DNA of 59,400 bases, counting the filler, from Coriobacteriales bacterium (GTDB taxonomy: Bacteria; Actinomycetota; Coriobacteriia; Coriobacteriales; UBA8131): assembly GCA_031263105.1 (NCBI GenBank). It is 6 parts of 6 records of this genome, joined end to end, with 100 filler letters (N's around TTAATTAATTAA, not from the genome) between each part and the next. Parts side by side here need not be neighbours in the genome. Positions count along the whole stretch, not along the records: positions 23,253 to 30,490 come from JAISGJ010000232.1; 5 more parts are not named here. The stretch is one strand, 5' to 3'. Under the pieces are notes generated by a model. That model made no database searches. It was not told where the DNA came from and worked only from the letters and a program-made list of their open reading frames with translations. A program made the translations under genes and the position numbers. Of this stretch, positions 6,865 to 53,915 are shown one piece after another (the stretch's first letter is position 1; every line of letters begins with the position of its first letter).

Positions 6865-7052
6865 GTTACTGTGTTCACACCCCACTGTCATTCCGAGTCC
6901 TTCGGCTGCGCTCAGGATAAACTCCGCCGAGGAATCCTCGGCTGCGAAGCAGCCGACCGCAGGTCGAAGCGCCTTCTGGCCGCAGTCGACCGCTTGCGCG
7001 ATCGAAGATTCCTCGACAGGCTCGGAATGACAGTGGGGGTGCGAACAGTAAC
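6865..7052. mobile_element. Palindromic MITE copy, non-matching arms, no TSD
   Basis: Ends GTTACTGTGTTCACACCCCACTGTCATTCCGAG ... CTCGGAATGACAGTGGGGGTGCGAACAGTAAC; same family as 27397 and 37464. Confidence 0.85.
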
Positions 7053-7101: not shown

Positions 7102-9769
7102 CTACCTCCCTCGCTTCCAGTGGGCGTAGAGCGTGACCGCCTTCGTGACCTTCGTGCTTGCCGTAACCTTCTGGCCGCCGGACTTCTTCGTGTACCAGCC
7201 GAGGAACCTGTACCCGCTGCGCTTCGGCACAGAGAGCTTGACGAGCTTCGAGCCATAGGCCTTCTTTAGGGAGGATGTCGGGGCCTTGCCCACCTTGCCG
7301 CCGTTGGCGTTGAGCCTCACGGTGTAGGTCTTGGCCTTCCAGTGGGCGTAGTAGGTGACGTTCCTGGCGACCTTCGCGGCGGCCCCCACCTTCGTGCCCC
7401 TCGCCTTGGCGGTGTACCAGCCTTGGAAGGCGTAGCCCGTGCGCACGGGCGTGGCAAGCTTGCCGAGCTTCTGGCCGTAGCTCCTCTTGACGGAGGAGGA
7501 GGCCTTCCCCGCCACCTTCCCGCCGCTTGCGTCGAACCTCACCGTATAACTGTTCGCCTTGTACCGCGCGGTGACCACGAGGTCGGAGGTCACGCTTGCA
7601 AATGCCCTGTCCCAGTTCGCGAAGGCGTGCCCCGTGCGCACGGGTGCCTTGGGCGCGCTCGCCGCCGCACCGTAGGCGACCTTCTGCGGCGTGCCGAGCA
7701 CCCTGCCGTCCCAACCCTTGAAAGTTACGGTGTAGCTGTTTACCTTGTACTGCGCGGTGACCGTGAGGTCGGAGGTCACGTTGGAGAACGTCTTGTCCCA
7801 GCCCGTGAAGGCATGGCCCGTGCGCACAGGGGCGGCCGGGGCGGGCGCGGCGGAGCCATGGCTGACCCTCGGTGCCGCAAGCACCCTGCCGTCCCAGTCC
7901 CTGAAGGTGACGGTGTAGCTGCGTATCGTCCAGTGCGCGTAGTACGTGACGTCGCCCGTGACGACCGCGGCGTCCGTGACCTCCGTGCCGCCCTCGGCCT
8001 CCGTGAACCAGCCGTCGAAGCCGTAGCCGATGCGCGGGGGCAGCTGGGGAGCCGTGGCTGCGTCGCCGTGGGCGACGTTCTGCACGTCGATCTCGGAGCC
8101 GTCGTGGCCTCTGAAGGTGACCGTGTAGACGTCCGCCTCCCAATGCGCCCAGTAGGTGGCGTCCGCGAGCGCATTCGTGACGGAGGCAACCTCCGTGCCG
8201 CCCTCGGCCTCCGTGAACCAGCCGAGGAAGGTGTGGCCCGTGCGCGGGGGCAGTTGGGGCGCCACGGCCGCCGTGCCGTGGGCGACGTTCTGCACGTCGA
8301 TCTCGGAGCCGTCCTGATCCCTGAAGGTGACCGTGTGGGTGACTATGACCTCCTCGACGCTCGCGAGCGCCGCGTGCGCGTCCACGAGGCCGTGGCCGTA
8401 GTAGTCGTCCCTGCCGAGGTCGCCGAGGTCGACGGCGGTGCCGTAGAGGGCCTGCTGGACCTCCTCGGGGGTCAGCGTGGGGTTGCGCGCGAACAGGAGG
8501 GCGGCTATCCCTGAGACGACGGGGGCGGCCTGCGAGGTGCCGGTCATGGAGGCCCATGAGTCCGGGCCGCTCGAGACGTTCGGGCCGTCATGGTAGGTGC
8601 TGTAGACGTCGAAGCCCGGCGCGGCTATGTCCTTCGCGTCGTTGTGCTGGCTGAAGCTGGCCCATTTGTTTTCCCATCCCACGGCCGTCACGGCGGTGAC
8701 CTCGGGGAAGTCGGAGGGGTAGTGGGGGACCGAGTGCTCGCCGCTTTCGTCCTCGACGAGGTTCTCCGGCTTGCCCGCGTCGTTGCCGGCGGCGGCGACG
8801 GTGAGGATGCCGGCGGCCTTGGCCTCGGCGATCTTGGCCTGGAGCGCATAGTCGAGGGCGCGGCCGCCGAGGCTCAGGTTGACGATGCGGACGTTCGCGC
8901 CGTGCTCCTCGTTGCAGGACATGACGTAGTCGTAGGCCTTTACCTCGTCGGACGTCCAGGCCCCTATCGTGCCGTCCCCGTTGCGGTGGAACACGTTGAC
9001 GGGCAGCACCTTGGCGTTGTAGGAGACCCCGGCGGTGAGCAGGCCGTTGTTCGCCCGTGCGGCCGCGATGCCCGCGACGTGCGTCCCGTGGCCGTTCAGG
9101 TCGCCCTCGGCCCCTGCGGACGCGCTGAGCGGCCGGTCGTTCACCACGTCCCAGGCGAGGTCCGCGATGATGTTGTCCTTGAGGTCGTTGTGGTCCATGC
9201 GGATGCCGGTGTCGACGACGGCGATGGCGACGGAGCCCTCGGTCCTCTTGAGGTCCCAGGCGTCGAAGGCCCTGACGGAGTACAGCCACCAGCCGGTGAT
9301 CTGGTCGTCAAGGGTGTCCGGGTCGTCGACCGCCGTGGCGGACGGCGCGTCGGGGGCGGGGATGCCGCCGGCGCCGGCATCGATGCCGGACGCAGCGCCG
9401 CTGCCGCCGTCGGCACCAGGCACGGCATCGTCGTCGGGGACGTCGTCCACGAGGCTGTAGAGGTAGTTCGGCTGCGCGAAGGCGACGCCCTCCTCGCCGG
9501 CGAGCTCGAGGAGCGCGTCCTCGACCGCGACATCCGGGGGGAGCTCGACGAGCAGCGTGGCGCCGCCTGCGGAGCCGCCGGGGGCGGATGCGGAGGCGTC
9601 GGCACCGGAGACGGACGCGGCCGAGTCGCCGCCGCCCGGCCCGCCGCCGCCGGCCCCGGAGGCCTCGGAGATGACCTCCACCTCCACCGCCTCGGCGCCC
9701 TGCCCGGAGAGCCCCGCCACCGACTCCTCGACGGCGGCCGCCTCGACGGCCTCGGGGGCGTCCCCCGCC
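7102..9769 (-). CDS. S8 subtilisin-like serine protease with C-terminal InlB B-repeats (5' end cut by contig edge)
   Basis: Triad motifs VVDTGI, HGTHVAG, GTSQAAP; six repeats of VTF/VRF...P.RTG..F.(G/N)W...(YAHW/TAQY). Confidence 0.93.
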
Positions 9770-9869
9770 NNNNNNNNNNNNNNNNNNNNNNNNNNNNNNN
9801 NNNNNNNNNNNNNTTAATTAATTAANNNNNNNNNNNNNNNNNNNNNNNNNNNNNNNNNNNNNNNNNNNN
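9770..9869. other. Artificial contig linker (also 19157-19256, 23153-23252, 30491-30590, 54302-54401)
   Basis: Five identical 100-nt blocks of Ns around TTAATTAATTAA (stops in all frames). Confidence 0.99.
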
Positions 9870-9877
9870 GGGTGTCC

Positions 9878-10813: not shown

Positions 10814-10979
10814 GTCCTCACCTTGGCCACCTCAACGCCCTCATCGCCATGCCGTCTCTACGCTATCAGGTCGCTTGGCGTAATCTTGCGGATGCTGTCG
10901 AGATAGCTGTACGGGCTGCCCTTGTCTCGCCAACGATTCTTGATGTCGGCGGCGGCGGCCCCAAGCGCGATGCCGCCAG

Positions 10980-11436
10980 CTGCAGGAGCAGTCGAGGTTA
11001 CGGAGCTTGCTGCAGCCGCTCAAGTCGAGTTCGGAGAGGTTTTTGCCGCGGCATTCGAGGTTACGAAGTTTGGTGCAAGCGCTCACATCGAGGAAATGAG
11101 AATAGGGGGAGTCCCAGCCCCAGTAGTGACTCGTTGTCTGCAAAACCATGGAAACCACAGCTCGTCCGCCGAGGGTTGCAGGAACGACGAGATCCCTGGA
11201 ACTCCCCGTGTAGCTGGTGACGTAGGCTCCGGCCCCGTACTTCGCACTGCCGTCCTTGACGGTATAGATTAAGTCCGCCTCACTCGTTGGTGCCATCATG
11301 CTCGCCCCCAGTGAGCGCATGGCAGACTCGGCGGACACCGCATCCTCACCGCAGGCAACGGACACACCGCCACCAAGAGGCAGGCAAGCGCCTTGCGCGG
11401 GACGGTCCTGTGCGATGCGGTGCGTTCGTATCCCAT
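10980..11436 (-). pseudogene. Truncated, frameshifted paralogue of the LRR surface protein at 14090-17452
   Basis: RKALACLL signal region, YTVKDGSAKYGAGAYVTSY..VPATLGG, two LRR units, then joins unrelated sequence; upstream leader similar to 17453-17500. Confidence 0.85.
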
Positions 11437-11557
11437 GGTGACTTCCCTTCTGTCGTCCCGGCTGTACTCTCGCGGGCAGCAGGGCTTACCTCCAAAGTCA
11501 ATCGACTTACCTAAGTCTTGACTATAAGCCCTGGCCTATGGCCTGCCCGGACATGAG

Positions 11558-11576
11558 CCCCCCCCCCCCCCCCCCC
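11558..11576. repeat. C19 homopolymer (G19 on coding strand) upstream of the LRR pseudogene
   Basis: Counted directly. Confidence 0.85.
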
Positions 11577-11622
11577 ATGCTGCACGGCAGATGTGCCTGC
11601 AAATATACCGTCTCCCCATCCG

Positions 11623-12903
11623 CTAAGCATTCATTGCGTGTGCGAGGATGTCCACCGTGTCGAGCTCCTCGATGTGCAGCCTGCCTTCAAGCATGAGCTT
11701 GTGCATCAGGTTCCTCCCCTGCGCTGAACCGATGGAATCTCCGTATCCGTCGATCAGCCTTGTGACAAGCGAGAACTGATCCCGTTTGATCTCGTCTGCC
11801 TTCGACTGATTGTGAATCGAGTAGTAAAAGGCGAGGCGCACTCTCCTGTTGTATAGGTCCAAGGTGTCAAATATCGAGTAGATGTATGACTGGTCCATAG
11901 TTCCGAACGAGTGCCCGTAGAATTTCGCCACGGTGATGCCTTCGCATTGTGACAACACTGCCGTCGGCTTGTTGTACAGCTTCCTGAACGTCTTGGTGAA
12001 CCCAATCGCTGACTCATCGACACCCTTCTTGTCGATCCCAATGATGATGTTGCCTCTGCCGTCGTTGCCTTTCAGCGTTCCATGCACATGGAACACCGCC
12101 GCCTCGTTCTCGAACGGCTGGGTGTAGTTGAAGGACATGACGGTCGAATTCCCGCCGGGCTCCAAACTGCGGATATGCGACAGCAGCCTTCTCGCGTCAG
12201 CGGCGTAGCCGCTCGCCGCCCCCACGGCCTTGTTCAGATATCTGGCGAATTCGCGTTCCAGGATGTTCAGCTCCTTGAGGAGAATGCCGAGGAGCAGCTT
12301 CTCGTCCTTCTCCCTGCCTCGCGGCCTGAAGCCTCCTCGATCCTGATAGTTCGCGCCTTCCAATATCTCATAGAGAAACTCGTCCTTGTACCGCGATGCG
12401 AGCAACCTATGGGCCGGGCGTATCGAATCGTCCTCCAGAAACATCTTTTTGAAGTCAGCGTTCATGTAGTGGAAAAGCGACCTGCGCTCATCAGGCTGAA
12501 TGCTGAAGATGTCGCCGATTGCCTCGGCTCTCGATAAAACCGAGTGGATGAACTCCTCGACATCTTTCCAGAGCCTTCCGAAAGCCTCCTTGTTTTGATA
12601 CATAAGGATGTCCCACGCCGTCATCGTCAGCTGATTCGACTTGGACGCGTTGTCGGTTTGGAAGTCGTCGCCAACGAGCCGGTCAAAATCAAGGGCAGCG
12701 GCGATACTCTCGTTGTTGGCGCCCTGCCCCAGAATGAGCTTCAAAGCCTTCAGAAAGCGTCCGTTCCACCTGCTTCTCGTCCAGTCTGAAAACTTTGATT
12801 TCAACCCACACGCCAGATCGAAACCGTTCCCGATCACTATCAGCTGCTTTGGTGGTGAGACACAATCGATTGGAGGGCCGCCCGTGTCTTGATAGATCGC
12901 CAT
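11623..12903 (-). CDS. AbiH-family (SIR2-like fold) abortive infection protein
   Basis: LIVIGNGFDLACGLKS, SFNYT, HVHG, FYGHSFG..D..Y motifs. Confidence 0.85.
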   Translation of the reverse strand: MAIYQDTGGPPIDCVSPPKQLIVIGNGFDLACGLKSKFSDWTRSRWNGRFLKALKLILGQGANNESIAAALDFDRLVGDDFQTDNASKSNQLTMTAWDILMYQNKEAFGRLWKDVEEFIHSVLSRAEAIGDIFSIQPDERRSLFHYMNADFKKMFLEDDSIRPAHRLLASRYKDEFLYEILEGANYQDRGGFRPRGREKDEKLLLGILLKELNILEREFARYLNKAVGAASGYAADARRLLSHIRSLEPGGNSTVMSFNYTQPFENEAAVFHVHGTLKGNDGRGNIIIGIDKKGVDESAIGFTKTFRKLYNKPTAVLSQCEGITVAKFYGHSFGTMDQSYIYSIFDTLDLYNRRVRLAFYYSIHNQSKADEIKRDQFSLVTRLIDGYGDSIGSAQGRNLMHKLMLEGRLHIEELDTVDILAHAMNA

Positions 12904-12970
12904 TGTAAGCTCCTATGGATAGTGCGATAGGAGAACCGACCGGCTCTCCTCGAATTGCCGAAACGAGCCG

Positions 12971-13645
12971 TCAAAAAATAGGCTCCGGGTCTTTGGCCCA
13001 CTTTTTCTTTAGCTCCGTGTGCTCCTTGAAGCCATTCAGCTTGTATGGCAAGACGTAGAGGTAGTCGATAATGTGCCCGACGAATCCAACCATGTACTCG
13101 ACATCGAAAAAATCGTAGTCAGCCTCCTTGCCATGTGCAGCGTCGTCGCCGAAACGCTTCGTCAGATACGATGCTTCTTTGAGAAATTCGGGGAGTCGCT
13201 CATCTGCGGAAATCTCCTCGATCTTGTCCTTGAGTCCCCATTCCGTTGCCCCCAAGTCACACAGTATCAGCTCCAGTGTCCGCCTGAGCCCCATTGCGCA
13301 CAGACTGTGGTCGATCCCGTGTGCGCGAACCGCCGCCTGGTACGCCTTCGCAATCTTCTTCGGCACTGCCGGGCTGCCGACAGAATGGGAGGGAAACAGG
13401 ATGGTTTCCTGCGACTCGTAATCAGGCGGCAGGCATGACTCTTCGTCGCTGTAAATCTCATGGAGCGTCGGCCTGTGGCAGGTCGGACACACCAACAACC
13501 TGTACGTGTAATGGAACTGGAACTCGTCATCCGGCTGCTGGGAGCCCCACTCGTGTATGCCGACCACCTCCATGACCGTCTCGTTTCCGCAATGAAGGCA
13601 GAGAACCGGCTGGGTGGTGTAGCCCTTTTGGCAGTCCGAATCCAT
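12971..13645 (-). CDS. DUF4145 (HEPN-like) protein with N-terminal Zn ribbon
   Basis: CLHC...CPTC, LRRTLE, L..KI, FGDDAAH; start MDSD chosen from RBS-like sequence. Confidence 0.78.
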   Translation of the reverse strand: MDSDCQKGYTTQPVLCLHCGNETVMEVVGIHEWGSQQPDDEFQFHYTYRLLVCPTCHRPTLHEIYSDEESCLPPDYESQETILFPSHSVGSPAVPKKIAKAYQAAVRAHGIDHSLCAMGLRRTLELILCDLGATEWGLKDKIEEISADERLPEFLKEASYLTKRFGDDAAHGKEADYDFFDVEYMVGFVGHIIDYLYVLPYKLNGFKEHTELKKKWAKDPEPIF

Positions 13646-13646
13646 C

Positions 13647-13955
13647 CTATTCGTCCTTATGAGGATACCCTGTTGTGCCGTATACAGACATGTGGCAGAG
13701 GGCCGACTTGTCATACTTTCTCGGCATCGAGCGCAAGCCTCCCTTTTCCGTCCTCAGCCTTTCGACATGGTCATCGCCGAGGACATGGACGCTTGTTTCA
13801 TGGGCCGGGCAATATTCGTATGCGCCCTCGAACGCGTCGTTCAGCTGCTCATAGTAAGCGCAGTGCAGCCTGTCGTTTTGAATGATGTCCTCGAGATGCT
13901 CCATGCCGCTCGGCGTGGAGACATCCTTGTATTTGTAAAGCGGCATCTTGACCAT
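13647..13955 (-). pseudogene. Truncated DUF2971-like gene
   Basis: LYKYK...DII.N.RLH.A.Y..LNDAFEG, then degenerates after about 75 codons. Confidence 0.6.
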
Positions 13956-14089
13956 AGGTATCCTCCTGTATCGACAACGGCTCTTAGGCAAGGCTCGAAG
14001 GCTTTCAGGCCACAGATTCAGCCACAGGACACGATGCAAATTTAACACCGCATCCAGCAACAGATACGTCTCCCGATATCACAAAGCCG

Positions 14090-17000
14090 CTACCTCACCC
14101 GCTTCCAGTGCGCGTAGAGCGTGACGTTCTTGGTGACCCTCGTGGCCGAGGTCGCCTCCGTGCCCCTCGTCTTGGAGGTGTACCAGCCTTGGAAGGCGTA
14201 GCCTGCGCGGGTGGGGGCGCTCGGCCAGCCGAGCTTCGAGCCGTGGGCCCTCTTGACGGAGGAGACGGCCTTCCCTCCCACCTTGCCGCCGTTTGCGTCG
14301 AGCCTCACGGTGTAGGCCTTGGGCTTCCAGTGGGCGTAATAGGTGACGGACCTGGCGACCTTCGTCCTGGCCGTGACCTTTGTGCCCTTGACCTTGCCGG
14401 TGAACCAGCCCTGGAAGTCATAGCCTGTGCGGGCGGGCTTTGCGAGGGTGCCGACCGCCCTGCCCTTCTTCTTCGCCACGGAGGCCGTGGCCGCCCTGCC
14501 CACCTTGCCGCCGTTGGCATTGAGGGTGACCACGGGGTCGCTGACCTTCCAGTGGGCCCAGTAGGTGACGTTCCTTGCAACCTTCGCGGCGGGCGCGGCC
14601 CTCTGGCCGCCGGACTTTGCGGTGTACCAGCCGAGGAAGTCGTGGCCTGAGCGGGCGGGCCTGGCGAGGGCGCCGAGGGACTGGCCGTAGTCCCGTTTCA
14701 GGGAGACGGAGGCCTTGCCGGAGACCTTGCCGCCTGCGGCGTCGAGCCTGACGGCGTAGGTGTTTGCCCTGTACGTCGCCGTCACGGTGAGGCCGGAGGT
14801 CACGCTCGCGAAGCCCCTGTCCCAACCTGTGAAGGCGTGCCCGGTGCGGGCGGGGGCGGCGGGGGCCGAGGCCGCCGAGCCGTGGGCGACCGTCTGCGTC
14901 GCGAGCACCTTGCCGTCCCAGCCCTTGAAGGTCACGGCGTAGGCGTTCAGCCTGTACTGCGCGGTCACGGTGAGGTCGGAGGTCACGCTCGCGAACGGCC
15001 TGTCCCAGCCCGCGAACGCGTGGCCCGCGCGGGCGGGGGCGGCGGGGGCCGCCGCAGCAGCGCCGTGGGCGACCGTGCGAACCGCGAGCGCCGCGCCGTC
15101 CCAGCCCCTGAAGGCCACCGTGTGGGTCACAACCGTCCAGCGGGCGTAGAAGATCACGTCGCCTGCGACGGACGTGGCGGGGCCGACCTGCGCGCCGCCG
15201 GAGGGCGCGCTGAACCAGCCGTCGAACGTGTGGCCCTCGCGCGCGGGCACCGGCAGCGCCCCCACGAGGGAGCCCTCGGCGACGGCGCGCCCCGCCACGA
15301 AGGAGCCGCCCCGGCTGTCGAAGCTGACCGCGAACGTCGCCGTTCCCTGCGCGTCCTGCGGCAGGACGTTGTCGGAGCCGAAGCGCTTGACGAGGGCGCG
15401 GCGGGCGTCGGAGTCCGGGATGCGGTTGTTCCTGCAGTAGAGGGAGGCCAGCCTGGGGTTGCCCGCGACGTCCAGGGACGCGAGGTAGTTGCCGGAGCAG
15501 CGCAGGGACGCGAGGTCGGCGTTGCCCGACACGTCGAGGGAGGAGAGGAGGTTGTCGGAGCAGTCCAAGGTGCTAAGCGCGGGGTTCTGGCCCACGTCCA
15601 GGTTCGCAAGCGAGCCGCCGGAGCACTTGAGGGTTGCGAGCGAGGCGCAGCCGCTCACGTCCAGCGAGGTGAGGGAGTTGCTGCCGGAGCAGTCCAAGGT
15701 TGTCAAGGCGCTACACCCACTCACGTCGAGTGCGACGAGGGCATAGAGCGGACGGGCTTCGCCAAAGCCGAAGCCATACTTTTCGCCCGACAGCGATGTC
15801 AGCGCGGTGCAGCCGCTCGCGTCCAGTGAGAGAAGGCTGTTGGACGGGTAGCGCAGCTCGGCCAGCCTCGTGAAGCCGCTCACATCGAGGGAGTCGAGGT
15901 AGTTGCGCCCTGAGATGAATTCTCCGACATCAGTGTGAACGTAGGAGCTGCCGCAGTTCAGGTACTCAAGCTCGGTACATCCTCTCAGCCCCGGCAGCTC
16001 AGCGAAGCCGTTGCCGGAGCAGTCAAGGCGCTTCAGGCGGGTGTTCTTGCTCACGTCCAGCGAGGCGAGCTTGTTGCCACCGCAGTCCAAGTATTCCAGG
16101 TTGATGCAGGCGCTCACGTCGAGGGCAGTGAGATTGTTGGTGAACGAAACCATGTCTCCGATCGATTCGACTCCACCGCAGTCCAGATACTTCAGGGCGA
16201 CACAGGCGCTCACGTCAAGCGAGGTCAACTTGAAGCCCCGCAAGGAGACCGAGACCACGGGCTGCCCGCCGAGGGTCGCAGGGACGACGATGTCCTTGGA
16301 GTTCCCTCTAAGGGCGGTGACGTAGGCGCCGGCCCCGTACTTCGCGCTGCCGTCCTCGACGGTGTAGGTGAGGCCCTCCGAGCTCACCTGCGGCCAGACG
16401 CTGGCCGCCCCGAAGCGGCTGACGAGCGACTGGAGGGCGTCGGGGTCGTTGATGCGGTTGCCGGAGCAGTTGAGGATCGTGAGCGCGGCGCAGTCGCTCA
16501 CATCGAGGGCGGTGAGGTTGTTGTAACGGACGACATTGTAGTAGTCGTAGGGGTCTAAGTAGGAGATGCTGCCGCAATTCAAGTACTCCAGCTCGGTGCA
16601 GTTCCCCACTCCCGTCAGCGCGGCAAGGCCGTTGCCGGAGCAGTAAAGGCGCTTCAGGTGGGTGTTTACGCCCACGTTCAAGGATGCGAGGTCGTTGCTG
16701 GTGCAGTCCAAATACTCAAGCAAGGGGCAAGCGCTCACATCGAGAGAAGTGAGGTAGTTGCGGTTGTAATGGTAGTTCCAGTCGTTGTAGTGGCCGCAGT
16801 CCAGATACTTCAGGGCGCCACAGGCGCTCACGTCCAGCGAGGTCAGGCCGAGGCCCTGCAAGGCGACCGAGACCACGGGCTGCCCGCCGAGGGTCGCGGG
16901 AAGCGTGACGTCTTTGGGGCTCCCACTGTAGGAGGTGACGTAGGCCCCGGCCCCGTACTCCGAGCTGCTGTCCTTGAGAGTGTAGGTGAGGCCCGTCTCG

Positions 17001-17452
17001 CTCGCCTGTGTCGTCACGCCCGCCCCTAGCGGGCGTATGCCCGTCGGAGGCGCGGCGGTGGCCTCCGGTCCGTCGGCTCCAGAGACAGCAGGCCCGGATG
17101 CCTTTTCGACGGCAGGGACGTCGTCGGCAGGCGCTTCGGACTCGGCGAGGCTCCCAGCCTCGTCTGGCGCACCGGATGCCGCATCCTCGTCGACAACTGC
17201 CCCTGTGACGGGCGCTGCGTCCGGCTCCGCGTCGGATGCCGCGTCCGCTTCCGTAGAAGAATCGTCCTCCGGCTCCGTGTCGATTGCGACTGCCTCGATG
17301 CCGTCCGCTGTGGACGGGCCAGCAACGTCGCCCGCCTCCGCGCCGTAGGCGACAGGTGCGCCGCCGAGCGAGAGAGCAAACACGACCGCCAAGAGGCAGG
17401 CAAGCGCCTTGCGCGGGGCGGTCTTGTGCGATGCGGTGCGTGCGTGTTCCAT
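14090..17452 (-). CDS. Secreted/surface leucine-rich-repeat protein with InlB B-repeats (internalin-like)
   Basis: Signal peptide RKALACLLAVVFALSLGG; many LxxLDVSxCxxLxYLxC repeats; six B-repeats; start MEHART at 17452 with GGGGAG RBS. Confidence 0.92.
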   Translation of the reverse strand: MEHARTASHKTAPRKALACLLAVVFALSLGGAPVAYGAEAGDVAGPSTADGIEAVAIDTEPEDDSSTEADAASDAEPDAAPVTGAVVDEDAASGAPDEAGSLAESEAPADDVPAVEKASGPAVSGADGPEATAAPPTGIRPLGAGVTTQASETGLTYTLKDSSSEYGAGAYVTSYSGSPKDVTLPATLGGQPVVSVALQGLGLTSLDVSACGALKYLDCGHYNDWNYHYNRNYLTSLDVSACPLLEYLDCTSNDLASLNVGVNTHLKRLYCSGNGLAALTGVGNCTELEYLNCGSISYLDPYDYYNVVRYNNLTALDVSDCAALTILNCSGNRINDPDALQSLVSRFGAASVWPQVSSEGLTYTVEDGSAKYGAGAYVTALRGNSKDIVVPATLGGQPVVSVSLRGFKLTSLDVSACVALKYLDCGGVESIGDMVSFTNNLTALDVSACINLEYLDCGGNKLASLDVSKNTRLKRLDCSGNGFAELPGLRGCTELEYLNCGSSYVHTDVGEFISGRNYLDSLDVSGFTRLAELRYPSNSLLSLDASGCTALTSLSGEKYGFGFGEARPLYALVALDVSGCSALTTLDCSGSNSLTSLDVSGCASLATLKCSGGSLANLDVGQNPALSTLDCSDNLLSSLDVSGNADLASLRCSGNYLASLDVAGNPRLASLYCRNNRIPDSDARRALVKRFGSDNVLPQDAQGTATFAVSFDSRGGSFVAGRAVAEGSLVGALPVPAREGHTFDGWFSAPSGGAQVGPATSVAGDVIFYARWTVVTHTVAFRGWDGAALAVRTVAHGAAAAAPAAPARAGHAFAGWDRPFASVTSDLTVTAQYRLNAYAVTFKGWDGKVLATQTVAHGSAASAPAAPARTGHAFTGWDRGFASVTSGLTVTATYRANTYAVRLDAAGGKVSGKASVSLKRDYGQSLGALARPARSGHDFLGWYTAKSGGQRAAPAAKVARNVTYWAHWKVSDPVVTLNANGGKVGRAATASVAKKKGRAVGTLAKPARTGYDFQGWFTGKVKGTKVTARTKVARSVTYYAHWKPKAYTVRLDANGGKVGGKAVSSVKRAHGSKLGWPSAPTRAGYAFQGWYTSKTRGTEATSATRVTKNVTLYAHWKRVR

Positions 17453-17576
17453 GGTGACTCCCCTTCTGTTAGTGCGACTGTGCTTTCGCGGGCAGCAGGG
17501 GACGGGCACGGGCACACGTGCCGGAGGGCGCGTGTGCGGGCGGTGCCTCTGCGGTGCCGCGCACATTCTTTAACAT

Positions 17577-18919: not shown

Positions 18920-19156
18920 ATGAGGGCGGAGTACGACTTCTCGGAGGCGGGGGCGAACCCGTATGCGAGGAGGCTGAAGCGCCAGGTGACGATACGCCTG
19001 GACGCGGCTGTCATCGACTACTTCAAGGAGCAGTCGGACCGGACCGGCGTGCCCTACCAGAGCATCATCAACCTGTACCTGAACGACTGCGTCCAGCAGG
19101 GCAGGAAGCTGACCTTCGTCTGTCGCGGAGCGCGCCGGGCGGGGCGCGCGGGCGCG
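18920..19156 (+). CDS. brnA: BrnA-family antitoxin (runs off the contig end)
   Basis: MRAEYDFS...NPYA, VTIRLD..VIDYFK, GVPYQSIINLYL. Confidence 0.88.
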
Positions 19157-19341
19157 NNNNNNNNNNNNNNNNNNNNNNNNNNNNNNNNNNNNNNNNNNNN
19201 TTAATTAATTAANNNNNNNNNNNNNNNNNNNNNNNNNNNNNNNNNNNNNNNNNNNNCCCGCGCCGCCGCCGCCCGCGCCGCCGCCGGCAGCGCCGCCGCC
19301 GACCGCCTTTGTCCACAGCGAGGGGAACACGAGGGAGGGCC

Positions 19342-23146: not shown

Positions 23147-23252
23147 GCACGTNNNNNNNNNNNNNNNNNNNNNNNNNNNNNNNNNNNNNNNNNNNNTTAA
23201 TTAATTAANNNNNNNNNNNNNNNNNNNNNNNNNNNNNNNNNNNNNNNNNNNN

Positions 23253-23405
23253 CGCCTCTCCCTCGCCCACGAGGCCCGGGTCTCGGGCCGCACCCCCGAC
23301 GACGTGATAGCCTCCATCCTCGCCGGCATCGCCGTCCCCTACTACGACGAGGACGAGGCCCGAGGCCTCAAGCAGGCCGCAGGCGGCGACGTCTTCGTGC
23401 GCTAG
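23253..23405 (+). CDS. moxR: 3' end of a MoxR-family AAA+ ATPase (cut by contig edge)
   Basis: [29 protein letters not shown]...*; first 77 bp identical to 30414-30490. Confidence 0.85.
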   Translation, partial: RLSLAHEARVSGRTPDDVIASILAGIAVPYYDEDEARGLKQAAGGDVFVR

Positions 23406-25694: not shown

Positions 25695-25926
25695 GGGGCC
25701 CAAGGCCGTCCTCCTTCGTTGCTTTCCGGGCGGCCCCCGCCGGGAGGGCGCCCCTCAAGGGGCGGCTTCCTTCGCTGGCCGTGCGGCCGCAGATCGCGCT
25801 TTGATGTGTCGTGATTCTGCACTATACTAGCGGTGTGGCCTGACGCACGTTCAGGTGAGCAAGGTTTGAGAATCTGCGGACAGCGAATTGCACCGTTGGC
25901 AGGCCCTGCGGGAACGGAGTACAGAC

Positions 25927-26160
25927 ATGACCGAGATGGTGTTGAGCAAAAGCACGCTGCAGGAAACCCTGCTCCCCCTGATTCCGACGGAGCGCGTCAG
26001 GCTGCGCGAGGACGGCGGCGTCATCAGCCTCACCCCCGTGCGTGAGGGCAAGGGCAGCGGGCTTCTCGGCATTGGCGCAGGGAGCAAGCTGACGACCGAG
26101 AGGTTCTTCGGGTATCGGCGTGAGGACATGGAGATCGAGCACAGGGCTCACGGCAAATGA
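25927..26160 (+). CDS. Putative antitoxin (AbrB/VapB-like)
   Basis: 77 aa, VRLREDGGVISLTPV; ATGA overlap with PIN gene; GGAG RBS. Confidence 0.65.
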   Translation: MTEMVLSKSTLQETLLPLIPTERVRLREDGGVISLTPVREGKGSGLLGIGAGSKLTTERFFGYRREDMEIEHRAHGK

Positions 26161-26339
26161 AGAAGTACGTGCTGGATGCCTGCGCCCCGATAGCGCTGTT
26201 TCAAAAGGAACAGGGGCCTGACATAATCGAGGGCCTTCTTGTGGCGGCGGCGGGCGGCAGCTGCTCGGTGTCTATGAACGTCGTTAACCTGCTTGAGGTC
26301 TATTACGGCTATCTGCGGGCCGGAGACACCGCACAATGA
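26157..26339 (+). pseudogene. Truncated VapC/PIN toxin
   Basis: YVLDACA.IA....E.G...VNLLEVYY, stops at 60 aa; C-terminal half of the PIN domain missing. Confidence 0.8.
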
Positions 26340-26773
26340 ACGCCATCACTGCGACACAGGCTGCGGAGCTTCTCGTTGCTGCGGCCGTCGGCATTTGGGA
26401 GGGAGCCGACATACAGGTCTCAATCAACATCGCTGTCAGCGAGAGGCTGAAAAGTGCTACGAGCAAAGATGGGGGACTTGATCTGCAGCAGGTCTTTATC
26501 ACGGACAGCGACATGCGGCATATCAAAAACCGCCACGGTTCCGGAGAGGATGCGCTTGGCCAAATCGATATAACGCCAGAGGACTTCGCAATGATACCGA
26601 TTATCCTCAGCGAATATGACGAACTTATAAGAGGCGAGGACGATAAACTGGGAAACGCCCGGTTCATGCTGACAAAGAACCTGAGCGGAACAGTGTATCT
26701 GGCGACTGTCCAAAGGGGAAAGAAAAAGCTGGAGGTTCGCACGTTCTATAAAAGAAAGCCCGGTGCCTCATGA
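26336..26773 (+). CDS. PBECR3-like (Barnase/EndoU/Colicin/RelE-fold) ribonuclease
   Basis: ITDSDMRHIKNRHG..E...GQIDITPEDF..IP.I...YD...TFYKRK; lower GC. Confidence 0.72.
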   Translation: MNAITATQAAELLVAAAVGIWEGADIQVSINIAVSERLKSATSKDGGLDLQQVFITDSDMRHIKNRHGSGEDALGQIDITPEDFAMIPIILSEYDELIRGEDDKLGNARFMLTKNLSGTVYLATVQRGKKKLEVRTFYKRKPGAS

Positions 26774-26814
26774 CAAGTGTCCTTGGGCATACGTCCGAAA
26801 CGACCCGGGTTTCT
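26753..26814 (+). ncRNA. Candidate structured RNA (three-helix junction with CGT-CCGAA-ACG hairpin) over the PBECR stop codon
   Basis: Hand-folded pairings: AGAAA(G)CCCGG/CCGGGTTTCT, TGCC/GGCA, GAC/GTC, CGT/ACG; functional strand unknown. Confidence 0.45.
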
Positions 26815-26848
26815 ATGGGTGTTATTGTAACACGGTTTCAAGGAGGAC

Positions 26849-27130
26849 TTAAACGACTTTAGGCAGGCAGGCGGTAACCGTAACAGTAAAATAGGCGACG
26901 ACGCTCATTTTTCGGGCAAAGCCGTCCGATTCGTCGTCCGTATAGAAATAGGTCCTCGCAAGACCGCTGCGCTCAAAGGCCAAGGCGTTGTTTTGGATGA
27001 AACGCTCTATGTCATTGTCGCGGATACAATGAAACTCCTTGAACTTCCTCTCAAGCTCAGGGAGCCTCTCGGGTTCTGAGGGCATCTGTTCTCTGAGGGA
27101 ATTGAGGCGCAGCTCACCTCTCATTGGCAT
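26849..27130 (-). pseudogene. Truncated GNAT acetyltransferase toxin
   Basis: F.C.RDNDIERFI...A..FE....ARTY...VVAYFTV, ends before the acetyl-CoA motif. Confidence 0.7.
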
Positions 27131-27299
27131 ACTCTTTGCCGAGCGCCTCCGCCAGTTTTTTCGGGTTGCCCCACTTTATACTGTGACGTCTGTACGGCTC
27201 GGGGTTGGCTTCCTGCTCCTCAATTTGAGCAATCATCCGATCTGCCGCATCGTCGTCGACAACAATCAACTTCCCAATACTCGAAGTAGCCACAGCCAA
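27114..27299 (-). CDS. Small antitoxin-like protein with (M)ATSSI N-terminus, partner of the GNAT gene
   Basis: AGGAGG RBS; overlaps GNAT start; similar N-terminus to 29906-30079. Confidence 0.7.
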   Translation of the reverse strand: MAVATSSIGKLIVVDDDAADRMIAQIEEQEANPEPYRRHSIKWGNPKKLAEALGKEYANER

Positions 27300-27396
27300 C
27301 CTCCTTCCTGTGCCCGGGTTCCTTTGGGCATCATATCATAGAATGCTTGTCCTCCAGAACACAAACGAGGGGACGAACACAAAATGGGCTACAGTG

Positions 27397-27558
27397 GTTA
27401 CTGTTCACACCCCACTGTCATTCCGAGCTCCGCCGAGGAATCTTTGGACACGCAGTGTCCAACGGCAGGTCAGGGGGCCTCTCGACCTGCGGTCGACCGC
27501 TGGCGCAGCCGAGGATCCCTCGGCAGGCTCGGGATGACAGTGGGGTGTGAACAGTAAC
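27397..27558. mobile_element. 162-bp MITE with 8-bp TSD CTACAGTG
   Basis: 25-bp perfect terminal inverted repeat GTTACTGTTCACACCCCACTGTCAT; CTACAGTG at 27389-27396 and 27559-27566. Confidence 0.92.
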
Positions 27559-27721: not shown

Positions 27722-28119
27722 GCACGCCGTCCTGACCGACGAGATGAGCTGCGCCCAGCCCAGCAGGCGAGGCTGCCGCCCCGGCGAACGCAGGCGCGGC
27801 ACTCGTAGGGGGCGGCGTCCCCGACGCCCCGCCGCCTGGTGCAGCGGCAGGTGACGGTGGACGGCACCGCGCACCCGCTCGACGAGCCCTTCATGGTGCT
27901 GGCGACGCAGAGTCCCATCGAGCAGGTCGGCGCCTCGCCCGTGGCGGCATCGCGCTCCTTGCGCTGGCGCGCGCCTACGTGCTCACGCGCGGCCGGGGCT
28001 ACGTCCTGCCCGACGACGTGATAGCCTCCATCCTAGCCGGCATCGCCGTCCCCTACTACGACGAGGACGAGGCCCGGGGCCTCAAACACCCCGCAGACGG
28101 CGACGTCTTCGTGCGCTAG
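27722..28119 (+). pseudogene. moxR: Degenerate moxR copy (Walker B region to stop) with REP insertion, two deletions and a frameshift
   Basis: AVLTDEMSCAQP / [25 protein letters not shown] / VGASP / [22 protein letters not shown] / IASILAGIAVPYY...*. Confidence 0.88.
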
Positions 28120-28220: not shown

Positions 28221-28481
28221 CCCCTCGCCCACGAGGCAAAGGTGGCGGGCCGCACCCCCACCGTCATTCCGAGCCCTACTGTCATCCCGAGCGGAGGGGG
28301 CGAAGCCCCCGCAGCCGAGGGATCCTTGGGTCCGGGCACCCGGAGAACGCACCGCGTTTTCAGCGAGGACGGACCGACAGGCCCACGGGACGCAAAGCGG
28401 CCGACCGCTGGCCGAAGCGCCTTCCGACCGCGGTCGGCCGCTGGCGCAGCCGAGGATTCCTCGGCAGGCTCGGAATGACAG
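28221..28481. repeat. Short moxR scrap (LAHEAKVAGRTP) fused to a composite palindromic element
   Basis: CCCTCGCCCACGAGGC..GGGCCGCACCCCC runs into two tandem arms ..GTCATYCCGAG and closes with CTCGGAATGACAG. Confidence 0.75.
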
Positions 28482-28584
28482 CGGGGGCGAGGGAGAGGCG
28501 GTGGAGCTCAGGGTGACACAGTGGTGTCCGTGGAGGGTGTGACGGTTAGCAATCGAGCTATAGGTTCGAAAGCGAGCTGTGACG

Positions 28585-28818: not shown

Positions 28819-29064
28819 CTATCTCGACATGCCGCTGAATGTGCTGCGAAGGCTCGCCTGTCCTCGGCTGAAGCGCCCGTTCTGCAGGGACGGGAGTGAG
28901 TCCACGATGGTCAGGCCGTGCTTCTCTGCCATGCGCCTTGCCGCCGCATCGGTGTGCAGCGCTCTCTCGGCAGGGGTCATGTCCTTCTTCTCCTCGTATA
29001 TCTGCAGGCGAATCTTGTGTATCTCACGCATTGCCTCAGGCTCGTCCCTCAGCTCGTCAATCAT
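28819..29064 (-). CDS. Putative antitoxin downstream of PIN gene
   Basis: EPEAMREIHKIRLQIYEE.KDMT..E; overlaps the PIN stop. Confidence 0.65.
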   Translation of the reverse strand: MIDELRDEPEAMREIHKIRLQIYEEKKDMTPAERALHTDAAARRMAEKHGLTIVDSLPSLQNGRFSRGQASLRSTFSGMSR

Positions 29065-29530
29065 TTTCGACCACCTCCGTCGGGGAATATATGCCAATCG
29101 ACCTGTAACCTTGCTCAAAGTTGACAGCTGCCGTCATCTCGATGGTTTTTCGCTTGACGATGTGCTTGAAGTTGAAGCTGACCATCACATCAAGTCCGTG
29201 TATCGTTGCCATCGCGATATGTATAGCGTCCAGCTTGTATTTCTCTGGAATGATGCCGGCTTCGATGTATCGGTTCGCCAGATCCTCTGCCTCATCGCTC
29301 GTTGCGAGCATCGCGATAGCGCAGTCTCGGATCAACGCCGTCATGTTGCCTTGTTTGGGCTCAGGCGCCCTCTCCAGTTCTTCGAGCACGTAGACGGATG
29401 TGACAGGCTCGTACTTTCCCTCGCGAATCTCATCGAAGAGCTTGAGCGTGTCGCGCTGTTTTTCTGGGTCGTTGTCCGCGAAGCAGAAGTTGAAGATCGA
29501 GGTCTCTATGTAGATACGTGGGACGCGCAT
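29057..29530 (-). CDS. PIN-domain protein (toxin), apparently intact
   Basis: IYIETSIF, S.YVLEEL, DAIHIAMAT, VSFNFKHIV; start MRVP at 29530. Confidence 0.88.
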   Translation of the reverse strand: MRVPRIYIETSIFNFCFADNDPEKQRDTLKLFDEIREGKYEPVTSVYVLEELERAPEPKQGNMTALIRDCAIAMLATSDEAEDLANRYIEAGIIPEKYKLDAIHIAMATIHGLDVMVSFNFKHIVKRKTIEMTAAVNFEQGYRSIGIYSPTEVVEND

Positions 29531-29905
29531 GGCAGGCTGCCTTCCATTGGCCGGTTCAGTCAGTATAGCGCAGTCTGCATGCAATCGCTCGTCCGGACAC
29601 CCGATTTGCGCCTCCGATCGTCTGCCCCGATCGTCTGCATTAGGGAACGGGCAGTACGGTGACAGACAGAGAGGTGACAGGGAGACGGCACCCGCCCCCT
29701 TGGCGCAGCGAGCGCAAGCGAACGGAGCGTCACGTCTGCAAGCGGCGCAGCCGCGCCGCACTGTGTGCGGCACTGGCGCCGGCCAGCCCGTGTACTTGGC
29801 AGACTGTTGGCAGGCATGCCGTCCCCCGTCGTCCGAAGCCGCATGTTCTGCAGTATTATATTTCAGATAGGAAAGAATTTGATTCTTGAAATGAGGTGAG
29901 CGGAC

Positions 29906-30079
29906 ATGGCAACAAGCAGCATATTCAGTACCATCAAAGTGAGTGACGAGAAGTCGGCGCAGAGATTGCTCGATGCCATGATTGCTACCGAGAAAGCCGA
30001 AGCGAACAAAAGGCCAAGACCAATTCGCGCCAAAGAACTGAAGGGCAAGGACCTGCAAGGCTTTTTCAAGGAGGGCTGA
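29906..30079 (+). CDS. Small MATSSI-type antitoxin-like protein (57 aa, below the ORF-track cutoff)
   Basis: GAGGTG RBS; MATSSIFSTIKVSDEKSAQRLLDAM...FFKEG*. Confidence 0.7.
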   Translation: MATSSIFSTIKVSDEKSAQRLLDAMIATEKAEANKRPRPIRAKELKGKDLQGFFKEG

Positions 30080-30185: not shown

Positions 30186-30490
30186 CTGGCCGTGCGCGCG
30201 GCGGCGCGCGAGGTCTACGCCTCCAAGATGATCATGCGCTACGTGGTGGAGATCGTCACGGCGACGCGCGACAACCCCGAGGTGCAGGTCGGCGCCTCGC
30301 CCCGTGGCGGCATCGCGCTCCTTGCGCTGGCGCGCGCCTACGTGTTCGCGCACGGCCGGGGCTACGTGCTTCCCGACGACGTGAAGGCCCTCGCCCCCCA
30401 CGTCCTGCGCCACCGCCTCTCCCTCGCCCACGAGGCCCGGGTCTCGGGCCGCACCCCCGACGACGTGATAGCCTCCATCCTCGCCGGCAT
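30180..30490 (+). pseudogene. moxR: 5'-truncated moxR copy (C-terminal lid region)
   Basis: YVVEIVTATR...[18 protein letters not shown]...[22 protein letters not shown]; no ATPase domain upstream. Confidence 0.85.
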
Positions 30491-30618
30491 NNNNNNNNNN
30501 NNNNNNNNNNNNNNNNNNNNNNNNNNNNNNNNNNTTAATTAATTAANNNNNNNNNNNNNNNNNNNNNNNNNNNNNNNNNNNNNNNNNNNNGGAATTTTTG
30601 GCCAGGGGGCGGGTGTGT

Positions 30619-30801
30619 GTAACACGACACACCCCCACTGTAATTCCGCCCCCCGCCGAGTAATATTGGCACACGCTGTGACCCACGGCAGGTCAGGGTG
30701 CCCTTCGACCTGCGGTCGACCGCTGGCGCGGTCGAAGATTCCTCGACAGGCTCGGAATGACAGTGGGGGCTCGGAATGACAGTGGGGGTGTGACGTGTAA
30801 C
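30619..30801. mobile_element. MITE variant (right end GTGTGACGTGTAAC, tandem arm); left end unreliable
   Basis: Same core and GATTCCTCGACAGGCTCGGAATGACAGTGGGGG arm; arm end duplicated at about 30750-30788. Confidence 0.7.
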
Positions 30802-30912
30802 AGACTCCGGCCCTCTGGCCAAACTTTCCCGGAATCCCGGTTGCGCGATGCCCCGAGGTTCGCTAACATAGGTACCCGCGCCCGGCAGGGCCCCAGGCTC
30901 CGGCTTGGCAAC

Positions 30913-30986
30913 TGGGGTGTCGTCTAATGGTAGGACAGCGGATTCTGGTTCCGTAAGTGGGGGTTCAACTCCTCCCACCCCAGCCA
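30913..30986 (+). tRNA. tRNA-Gln (CTG)
   Basis: Acceptor TGGGGTG/CACCCCA, anticodon loop TT-CTG-GT, GTTCAA T-loop, encoded CCA. Confidence 0.96.
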
Positions 30987-31050
30987 AGAAAGCCCAAGGT
31001 GTCCCGTTGAGGGTCGCCGAGCAGCTTGGAGCAGATAGCGCGTTCAGCAT

Positions 31051-31127
31051 GGCCCGTTCGTCTAGCGGTTTAGGACACCGCCCTCTCAAGGCGGAGATCG
31101 TGGGTTCGAATCCCATACGGGCTACCA
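31051..31127 (+). tRNA. tRNA-Glu (CTC)
   Basis: Acceptor GGCCCGT/ACGGGCT, anticodon loop CT-CTC-AA, GTTCGAATC, encoded CCA. Confidence 0.97.
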
Positions 31128-37270: not shown

Positions 37271-37463
37271 AGAGCCGACATGCCTTCAATGTGCCTCCTC
37301 GCCCCTGCAGGGCATGCAGTGCACGGCGGGCATCTCGATGTGCCCCCGTGCTCCTTGTAACGCCATCCCATCCTAGCACAGCGAGCCGGACGGGTCGTGT
37401 CAAAAGGAAAACCGATTCGAAACCGATTGCGCTGATTTCGCTGCGGGCGGCAGCGGTTTGGAC

Positions 37464-37625
37464 GTTACTGTTCGCACCCCCTCTGTCATCCCGAGCCTGC
37501 CGAGGGATCCTCGACCGCGCCAGCGGTCGACCGCAGGTCGAAGCACCTTCCGGCCGCAGTCGGCTGCTGCGCAGCCGAAGATCCCTCGGCAGGCTCGGGA
37601 TGACAGAGGGGGTGCGAACAGTAAC
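37464..37625. mobile_element. 162-bp MITE with 8-bp TSD GTTTGGAC
   Basis: 46-bp perfect terminal inverted repeat; GTTTGGAC at 37456-37463 and 37626-37633. Confidence 0.94.
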
Positions 37626-37663
37626 GTTTGGACGGCGACGGACGGCACCGGCGAATCTTCCCC

Positions 37664-53878: not shown

Positions 53879-53915
53879 GTTTTTCTTAGTTCTTTAGTAA
53901 TAGCAGCAGTACTAC

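Follow-up and report, generated by a model that had tools for sequence, protein, structure and literature searches.

An antisense small-RNA gene predicted at the 3′ boundary of PBECR3 ribonuclease genes

The window analysed here is a stretch of 59,400 nucleotides of joined contigs from the draft assembly of a Coriobacteriales bacterium (GCA_031263105.1), and the locus in question lies on a 7.2-kb contig at 23253-30490 (JAISGJ010000232.1). There, a gene for a 145-aa protein with a PBECR3 domain, a predicted ribonuclease (RNase) of the BECR fold, ends within a DNA segment that can fold into a three-way RNA junction, and an extended −10 promoter element faces back into the fold and the gene from the opposite strand (Table 1). 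These features were picked out in a first inspection of the sequence (the original prediction). In our reading of this and related sequences, the fold is one member of a conserved, promoter-bearing family of antisense small RNAs tied to the 3′ boundary of the PBECR3 domain.

Table 1. Features of the PBECR3 locus and its surroundings, in window positions. The helices P1 to P3 are written in plus-strand coordinates. ORF, open reading frame.
Feature	Position	Strand	Basis or remark
Stand-alone PBECR3 (BECR-fold) predicted RNase toxin gene, 145 aa	26336-26773	+	Pfam PF18812
Toxin stop codon TGA	26771-26773	+	inside P2b of the RNA element
Core of predicted antisense small RNA, three-way junction	26752-26819	-	covariance model match
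P1, AGAAAGCCCGG with CCGGGTTTCT	26753-26763 with 26805-26814		plus-strand coordinates
P2a, TGCC with GGCA	26764-26767 with 26786-26789		plus-strand coordinates
P2b, GAC-AAGT-GTC	26772-26781		plus-strand coordinates
P3, GTC-CGAAAC-GAC	26793-26804		plus-strand coordinates
Predicted extended −10 promoter element of small RNA, TGTTACAAT	26824-26832	-	sequence and conserved box position
U-rich run after closing stem (CUUUCUUUUAUAG including stem end), possible terminator tail	26744-26752	-	
PIN-like (vapC-like) N-terminal fragment, 60 aa	26157-26339	+	weak Pfam PIN match
77-aa ORF 5′ of PIN fragment, possible cognate antitoxin	25927-26160	+	ORF call
GNAT-type acetyltransferase N-terminal fragment, 93 aa, convergent	26849-27130	-	phrog_1758
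61-aa ORF 5′ of GNAT fragment, possible antitoxin	27114-27299	-	ORF call; Pfam matches all sub-threshold
Palindromic repeat copies	27384-27557; 6926-7052; 28392-28500; 30633-30830; 37439-37650; 59093-59400		

That the gene is a stand-alone PBECR3 gene was borne out by a PF18812 match above the cut-off (E 8.9e-13; 48.6 bits against a cut-off of 30), in which residues 34-141 align with profile positions 3-109 of 115. Searches of PADLOC, NCBIfam, PHROGs and PDB sequences gave no match for the protein. Its AlphaFold2 model has a predicted local distance difference test score (pLDDT) of 87.7 and a predicted template modelling score of 0.83. The BECR alpha/beta fold has an N-terminal helix and then a meandering sheet; the model is laid out as helices followed by strands at 96-99, 108-116, 119-127 and 132-140; the C-terminal five residues are coil, and the last block has a pLDDT of 69. 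Foldseek gave no match for the model at E 0.001 or better. The top 10 structural neighbours by VIA-align were all RNase toxins of the RelE/BrnT/CdiA-CT/colicin D kind with Z scores of only 4.1-6.3, an agreement with the BECR assignment that is weak by itself. Across 15 sequences R61, H62 and H67 are invariant and T136 nearly so. For the BECR fold, the available portion of Iyer et al. 2017 (PMC5512222) describes a catalytic His in a helix and a C-terminal Thr/Ser; it treats the PBECR domain as a predicted metal-independent RNase and describes both solo and polyvalent forms. The 145-aa protein is termed a predicted endoribonuclease here.

The three-helix junction first drawn by hand at 26753-26814 was reproduced by RNAfold on both strands. 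The fold energy was −21.1 kcal/mol on the plus strand (z −1.89, 8 of 200 shuffles as stable) and −23.8 kcal/mol on the minus strand (z −2.36, 5 of 200). A covariance model built from related loci (R1, described below) also matched the element, on the minus strand, with 61.8 bits (E 2e-15). Folding energy by itself is no better than chance; conservation is what raises the element above chance. In the RNA the closing stem P1 brings the 5′ and 3′ ends together, the hairpin P3 (GUC-GUUUCG-GAC) is invariant, and the arm P2 combines a conserved internal loop (CAAGGG / AGCAYGA) with a variable capped hairpin.

The element did not correspond to a known RNA family. The likeness to a tRNA T-loop that had been suspected for one hairpin was rejected: ARAGORN placed no gene at 26700-26850, its only calls in the window being tRNA-Gln and tRNA-Glu at 30913-31127, and Rfam had no match at the element. 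With Rfam 15 the whole window gave only two tRNAs at the gathering threshold, the segment 26600-26950 gave two chance-level rows at E up to 10, neither at the element, and six related loci gave no match at E up to 1. A hammerhead was set aside by a comparison by eye, the junction lengths of 0/4/1 being unlike those of the hammerhead core. A small ORF within the RNA was rejected too, as its AUG is ACG in about half of the sequences. No tandem repeat was present in 25700-27400, and a single antisense unit lies downstream of the toxin gene.

Besides the window protein, five close relatives of similar length were found, with 45-82% identity by alignment (BLASTP 47-82%), and all of them terminate in KPGAS(C). 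Pattern scans located seven loci in species genomes, 33 in metagenomes and none in viral contigs. The species-genome carriers were Eggerthellaceae (among them Adlercreutzia caecimuris B7 and Candidatus Rubneribacter), a metagenome-assembled genome (MAG) of Eubacteriales family XIII, and MAGs of Spirochaetaceae and of Treponema. No close relative of the stand-alone protein turned up by tblastn in phage and plasmid collections or in a scan of viral-contig proteins, and a 25-nt degenerate pattern had no match in the phage, plasmid and viral search. When the gene ends were compared, the last five codons, the stop codon and about 45 nt 3′ of it were much better conserved than the protein. Model R1 found the ~65-nt element 3′ of the gene in 38 of the 40 related loci as well as in the window; the two misses are cut by contig ends, and six loci carry a second copy. 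The element occurs in Actinomycetota, Bacillota and Spirochaetota, and also in phage genes, which are treated below. The leaders of the toxin genes, compared at 10 loci, showed no conserved 5′ untranslated region or anti-Shine-Dalgarno partner.

Conservation of the element is accompanied by covariation, as anticipated in the original prediction. R1 was built in minus-strand orientation from 25 distinct relatives with four hand-set helices: P1 with an extension, P3, P2a (GCC/GGC) and the variable P2b. In these 25 sequences 89.5% of 487 cells held standard pairs, and compensatory changes were seen in 13 of the 20 pairs. None of 500 shuffles reached these figures, and sliding the partners by 1-3 columns lowered pairing to 22-47%. 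Among 32 distinct model-aligned matches 91.9% of cells were paired, with compensatory changes in 15 of 20 pairs, although this alignment was fitted to the model and hence leans toward it. Paired changes in the outer helix include TCGGG/CCCGA, CCCGG/CCGGG, CCAGG/CCTGG and TCAGG/CCTGA, and in the stop-codon hairpin TAGCC/GGCT, TGATC/GATC and TAACCG/CGGTT, so that the stop codon of the relatives (TAG, TGA or TAA) covaries with the opposite hairpin arm. Since P3 is invariant apart from two wobble changes, it is neutral on pairing. As the variable hairpin was misaligned in the raw MAFFT alignment, RNAalifold did not recover P2 from it, and the hand-set structure and the covariance model were used instead.

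The strand on which the fold is selected was assessed from its mismatches and flanks. An A-C mismatch on the plus strand is a G-U pair on the minus strand, and the core helices contain 24 G-U pairs when read on the minus strand against 5 on the plus strand; standard pairs amount to 94.2% and 89.6%, respectively. The P2b loops are GNRA tetraloops on the minus strand in four lineages (GUAA in loci L003 and L016, GAAA in L009 and L018). The minus strand was the more stable one in 24 of 35 stand-alone instances. The extended −10 that had been noticed on the minus strand of the window is not only present but conserved. Relative to the fold, this −10 box lies on the minus strand 10-17 bases beyond P1, and the promoter is 6-10 nt away from the closing stem. 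Of 35 distinct instances, 30 have a TANNNT box whose end lies 11-17 nt ahead of the GGG anchor, and 24 of these carry the TGn extension; the background frequencies at 4998 random positions of the same loci are 13.3% and 1.3%. The predicted start falls about 7 nt past the −10 box, at the first bases of the closing stem (~26815-26818 in the window). On the other side of the fold, the 8 nt after the stem include at least five U in 23 of the 35 instances when the minus strand is read, and in 8 of the 35 when the plus strand is read; the U-rich run, whose U residues complement Lys/Arg codons before the protein tail, possibly serves as a terminator. Because of the G-U bias, the −10 box at a fixed distance and the U-rich tails, the fold is read as the antisense RNA itself. 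This revises the earlier proposal that an antisense transcript regulates the fold: the antisense promoter stands, while the fold and the transcript appear to be one and the same. We conclude from these features that the selected fold is a minus-strand RNA of ~75 nt, predicted to run from ~26817 to ~26745 in the window, and an antisense small-RNA gene very probably exists here.

Several observations weigh against this reading. The single-sequence folding z of related elements is ordinary (−0.06 to −1.8). The plus strand is the more stable one in 11 of the 35 stand-alone instances, and two plus-strand positions pair (G-U or A-U) on the plus strand only, in 21 and 24 of 25 sequences. The −10 box is missing in 5 of 35 instances, and the U-rich tail in 12 of 35, mostly in the high-GC group. 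The small-RNA gene is predicted from sequence, and the role of PBECR3 as an RNase toxin is itself a prediction (available portion of PMC5512222). Two more points concern material given below: the sequence similarity may be partly inherited from the coding linker of phage polyvalent proteins, and copies of the RNA without a toxin gene may be recent relics rather than functional genes.

Those instances in which the plus strand is the more stable one mean that the mRNA's own 3′ fold may matter too. In the fullest form of this alternative, the functional element would be the plus-strand fold at the mRNA 3′ end, acting as a recognition or cleavage site of the RNase (a self-limiting feedback) or as a 3′ stabiliser, with the antisense RNA secondary; this is the decoy or self-target idea of the original prediction. 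The two wobble positions confined to the plus strand fit such a role, the invariant P3 carries no strand information, and the conserved string ACGTCCGAAAC always follows directly on the PBECR3-coding part in any frame, as a site coevolving with the enzyme would. The 24 to 5 ratio of G-U pairs, the conserved promoter facing the opposite way and the distribution of U-tracts all point to the other strand; furthermore, copies that have lost the toxin mRNA still keep the element and its minus-strand promoter. We consider this alternative unlikely.

The antisense reading is extended by the phage polyvalent proteins. A search with a family profile at E up to 0.001 returned 1654 cluster representatives from a set of 1.84 billion proteins; many of these representatives are domains within proteins thousands of residues long. 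Two of the related loci, L005 and L034, are themselves polyvalent genes that combine PBECR3 with LPD3, ART-PolyVal, LPD23 and MuF_C; in L005 the whole element lies in frame inside the ORF (50.6 bits). Conserved peptides follow the polyvalent PBECR3 domains in two flavours, ALDA...PGLNVRNDSD and PHA...GTSETTP. Where DNA was available, PGLNVRNDSD, GTSETTP and a third peptide, ERPKRP, are one nucleotide string read in three frames. Its core, ACGTCCGAAAC, is read as TSETT in L005, L092 and L093 (near-identically in L052 and L063), as YVRND or YVRNV in L076, which equals L137, and in L061, and as ERPKRP in L115. The expected conservation independent of frame was thereby confirmed, the same 15-mer occurring in three frames across polyvalent genes. 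The exact 15-mer is present in 53 viral contigs, in five of which a PBECR3 domain ends 37-50 nt upstream with the same geometry. The matches in the remaining 48, which lack such a domain nearby, were put down to chance.

The structure is likewise retained in these genes. L076/L137 matched the covariance model with 41.1 bits (E 1e-10), and L115 keeps the three-way junction with entirely different helix sequences. The minus strand was more stable in all nine polyvalent or phage instances, by 1.2-11.6 kcal/mol, and in eight of the nine a promoter with a TTGACA-like box, a 17-nt spacer and a −10 box was seen by eye on the minus strand. In L093 and L063 a generic scan placed promoter and terminator-like sites on either side of the element, and the Lys run before the linker peptides is the U-tract of the antisense RNA. 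Since the same RNA gene lies antisense inside phage polyvalent genes after PBECR3, the RNA would partner the domain and not this locus alone. In other PBECR3 subfamilies, present in 19 of 401 Bacillota genomes, there was no strong R1 match except at the own locus of one genome (G004), and weak matches occurred only after polyvalent domains; the modelled RNA is therefore not universal to PF18812 and belongs to one large branch only.

The layout of promoter, fold and terminator within phage late genes resembles that of phage antisense RNAs such as OOP. The RNA could hence be real without being an antitoxin, acting as an OOP-like regulator, for example by silencing the polyvalent late gene in lysogens, or as a trans-acting small RNA. 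A pure cis-antisense RNA needs no conservation of primary sequence across Actinomycetota, Bacillota and Spirochaetota, and the tight link to one RNase domain in every context, orphan remnants included, points to that domain as the partner. The probability of the regulator reading appears low to us.

At many loci the toxin gene is broken or lost while the RNA and its promoter are kept. By our own reading of the toxin ORF at the 40 loci, 19 have an ORF reaching the tail, seven share the same aberrant internal stretch (L026, L028-L033), five have a premature stop or frameshift (L006, L018, L025, L039, L040), five are 5′-truncated (L007, L024, L035-L037), two are cut by contig ends and two are polyvalent genes. 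At the 17 loci with a disrupted toxin ORF the RNA scored 60.7-85.8 bits, matching the intact loci. Genome searches that began with the RNA found one sporadic copy per genome, in 5 of 5 source genomes, 4 of 151 Coriobacteriia, 8 of 151 Eggerthellaceae and 1 of 151 Spirochaetota. In 4 of 10 RNA-bearing Coriobacteriia genomes (L047, L048, L072, L075) tblastn located no PBECR3 ORF next to the RNA, and a Pfam search of the Coriobacteriia sample found the domain in only 2 of 151 genomes. These four orphan RNAs retain the −10 box and only the last 3-10 codons of the gene (...WKKNLSGASC*, RSGASC*, MGASC*), as does the first of the two copies in L026 and L028-L032. An antitoxin would be expected to outlast its toxin gene in this way.

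The original prediction had also seen no obvious protein antitoxin, and the neighbours of 15 loci agree: their 71 ORFs contain no shared family, no conserved protein partner and no recombinase, integrase or transposase. The neighbours differ in all 15 loci and include type ISP, HsdM and EcoEI-R restriction-modification genes, hemN, smpB and yhcG. As no neighbour family is shared, the module is self-contained, ~550 bp long and without a protein partner.

The possibility that the element is a DNA site, that is, a recombination or module-exchange boundary (att-like, or a polymorphic-toxin cassette junction) at which PBECR3 is swapped, draws on the arrangement of some of these loci. Two direct copies of the RNA lie 2.8 kb apart in L026 and L028-L032 (~454-673 and 3384-3460), the upstream copy lacking a toxin gene, abutting a convergent yhcG-like gene and retaining its promoter; in L037 and L029 the right flank is exchanged precisely where the element ends; and in the window the module is flanked by two other toxin genes of which only the N-terminal halves are present. 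The absence of any recombinase among the 71 neighbour ORFs argues against it, and attC-like ends (RYYYAAC...GTTRRRY) were not seen by eye. All three frames are used at the element, so exchange there would frameshift the product. Nor would a DNA site account for the covarying helices with their strand-specific G-U bias, for the sigma-70 promoter or for the U tails, and this explanation is very improbable.

At the gene end the constraint acts on nucleotides rather than on protein. P2b varies in length by non-multiples of three, and the Gly codon and the conserved core are 28, 35, 36 or 37 nt apart; this variable spacing shows that the downstream part is not a conserved continuation of the reading frame. 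Recoding or read-through into a downstream frame was rejected, as the offset from the toxin frame to the core is 0, 1 or 2. In 12 intact genes Gly149 is GGT and Ala150 is GCC in every case, unlike invariant Gly/Arg codons inside the gene, whose third-base entropy is 1.4-1.8 bits. A strain variant of L003, the locus of A. caecimuris B7, differs from it at 22 positions over 611 nt and at none in 4368-4478, which holds the element and promoter. That the conservation is a functionless relic of polyvalent linker coding sequence, left when a new stop codon made the gene stand-alone, is suggested by the conserved peptides at this place in polyvalent proteins and has next to no probability, because the peptide flavours are the same nucleotides in different frames, stand-alone copies whose proteins are ~45% identical retain the element, with compensatory changes and with indels that are not multiples of three, and the strain variant has no substitution in it.

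Taken as a minus-strand RNA gene, the element suggests a two-gene toxin/RNA-antitoxin module in which the RNA neutralises the PBECR3 RNase, an interpretation that we hold with moderate confidence. The first gene (26336-26773, plus strand) would encode the BECR-fold PBECR3 predicted endoribonuclease; the second, convergent on the minus strand, would produce the ~75-nt RNA from its own extended −10, starting at ~26817 and ending at ~26745. Being encoded opposite the toxin gene, the RNA can pair without mismatch with the end of the toxin mRNA, over the last ~9 codons, through the stop codon and into the 3′ untranslated region. We expect neutralisation to act in two layers. In one the RNA would pair with the 3′ end of the toxin mRNA, as in 3′-overlapping type I systems and lambda OOP; in the other the PBECR3 protein would directly recognise the folded RNA as a pseudo-substrate or inhibitor, as in type III. 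Near-invariant unpaired nucleotides in three phyla and the survival of orphan copies fit the protein-recognition layer, which in our analysis seems to explain the evidence better than mRNA pairing.

A broader proposal, which we offer tentatively and regard as doubtful, is that PBECR3 RNases carry a dedicated 'immunity RNA', a ~75-nt three-way junction bound as an inhibitory pseudo-substrate, with three roles. It would serve as the antitoxin of chromosomal stand-alone modules, as self-protection or immunity to superinfection, carried within the polyvalent virion-effector genes of phages, and, in the form of orphan copies, as a host defence against injected PBECR3 effectors.

The surroundings of the locus are composed of gene fragments. 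The ATG of the PBECR3 ORF overlaps the stop codon of the 60-aa ORF in a shared ATGA, so this part of the earlier description of a truncated vapC was confirmed. The vapC identity is plausible and not firm, since the PIN match is weak (E 0.0048; 17.9 bits, under the 23.6 cut-off; profile positions 1-47 of 120). The 77-aa ORF has no family match in Pfam, NCBIfam, PADLOC or PHROGs, and a promoter scan marked a promoter-like site at 25801-25828. On the other side, residues 26-85 of the 93-aa ORF match the acetyltransferase family phrog_1758 (E 8.1e-10) on profile positions 19-71 of 184, and this GNAT fragment terminates 17 nt from the small-RNA promoter. Because the PIN-like and GNAT ORFs are N-terminal only, the PBECR3 unit is lodged between the N-terminal halves of two toxin-type genes, and it looks as if the module has replaced their 3′ halves.

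Other features of the window and of the related loci are recorded here in their own right. The 7.2-kb contig has identical 77-nt ends (23253-23329 and 30414-30490) with an ORF running through both (...|AVPYYDEDE...), which indicates either a circular or tandem unit or else a loop of the assembly; the stretch recurs a third time, in diverged form, at 27967-28043. The same contig carries another pair of a small and a larger ORF on the minus strand (28819-29118 and 29057-30058), and the C-terminal ~155 residues of the larger one are PIN-domain-like by eye. Palindromic repeats of ~130-170 nt, resembling miniature inverted-repeat transposable elements or repetitive extragenic palindromes and ending in GTTACTGTTCACACC...GGTGTGAACAGTAAC arms, are intergenic on several contigs (Table 1). 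Contig spacers are seen as N runs around TTAATTAATTAA at 9768-9871, 19154-19256, 23153-23252, 30491-30590 and 54302-54401; as the window consists of at least six joined contigs of a draft assembly, synteny across them is meaningless. Two contigs carry long arrays of diverged coding repeats with units of 63, 183, 210 and 222 nt, at 7110-8336 and 10973-17500; by their look these are genes for surface proteins with leucine-rich or Ig-like repeats. At 53895-53969 there is a (TAG)n / (GTA)n triplet run of ~75 nt. Among the related loci, three stand-alone modules (L009, L014, L024) directly follow restriction-modification genes, which code for HsdM, for a type ISP enzyme and for the C-terminal domain of a type I R subunit. 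They are reminiscent of anticodon nucleases, such as PrrC, which lodge in type I restriction-modification loci.

Among the commonest weapons of bacterial and phage conflict are the BECR-fold RNases, such as RelE, colicins D and E5, CdiA-CT and PBECR, and to our knowledge every known one is controlled by a protein. A conserved, structured antisense RNA linked to a BECR domain would add RNA-based control or immunity to this superfamily, and would give a testable function to the PBECR3 family, so far RNases by prediction. The conserved 'linker peptide' of polyvalent proteins may be no more than the shadow that an RNA gene casts from the opposite strand. The RNA, whose promoter, fold and tail are defined, is a candidate new family for Rfam-style curation, and the compact ~550-bp system would suit the study of how RNA neutralises a ribonuclease.

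Of the protein-neutralised BECR toxins, colicin D/ImmD, CdiA-CT/CdiI and RelE/RelB, the toxins share the fold class and presumed RNase chemistry of PBECR3; unlike these pairs, the PBECR3 loci have no conserved protein partner. Among RNA-controlled systems, txpA/RatA and bsrG/SR4 of Bacillus subtilis are type I, with an antisense RNA convergent over the toxin 3′ end. The present locus is like them in its convergent 3′ overlap, its predicted RNA promoter and its lack of a protein antitoxin, and an antisense RNA gene complementary to the toxin mRNA, the hallmark of type I, was found in silico (promoter, and fold over the last codons and stop). It is unlike them in that their toxins are small membrane peptides, whereas here a 145-aa BECR-fold RNase is predicted. 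As far as we know, type I antitoxin RNAs are restricted to lineages and their primary sequence is not conserved across phyla, in contrast to the ~65-nt three-way junction, which is kept across three phyla and also in phage genes. A nuclease-like toxin is under small-RNA control in SymE/SymR and RalR/RalA of E. coli, a combination resembling the one proposed here. SymR covers the 5′ end and start of symE, RalA acts in trans with Hfq, and neither is known to form a conserved three-way junction over the stop codon, as here; the toxin folds are unrelated. The 77-nt OOP RNA of lambda, which has a promoter and a terminator of its own and lies opposite the 3′ end of cII, is likewise a short antisense RNA at the 3′ end of a phage gene, but is not known to be linked to a toxin domain or to be conserved as a three-way junction across unrelated hosts.

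Such an RNA is not described in the available portions of the literature on PBECR3/PBECR, polyvalent proteins, RNA antitoxins, type III systems and prophage antisense RNA. The PBECR domain of the polyvalent proteins in PMC5512222 belongs to the same family, PF18812, as the protein here. The available portion of that paper mentions no RNA partner, immunity factor or antisense gene, and does not describe the stand-alone chromosomal clade with the (P/S)GAS(C) tail and RNA; its supplements could list gene neighbourhoods. It is unlikely that these supplements, or those of the 2026 bioRxiv BECR classification, list the RNA. The pairing of PBECR3 with an antisense RNA looks like an undescribed RNA-based antidote system.

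A functional parallel exists with the type III systems ToxIN, CptIN and TenpIN, in which, according to the available portions of PMC3401426 and PMC5772629, an endoribonuclease is neutralised by an adjacent structured RNA, and which are mobile across phyla. The PBECR3 locus is like them in combining a predicted endoribonuclease toxin with an adjacent structured RNA. Their RNAs are tandem repeats that lie upstream, are co-oriented with the toxin gene and are processed by the toxin. No co-oriented upstream tandem-repeat RNA was found here; unlike type III, the locus has a single antisense unit downstream, and its toxin is of the PBECR3 and not the ToxN-like kind. If the immunity-RNA proposal were true, a BECR-fold toxin would here have an RNA as its immunity factor for the first time, and this RNA antitoxin would be of a new kind, intermediate between types I and III.

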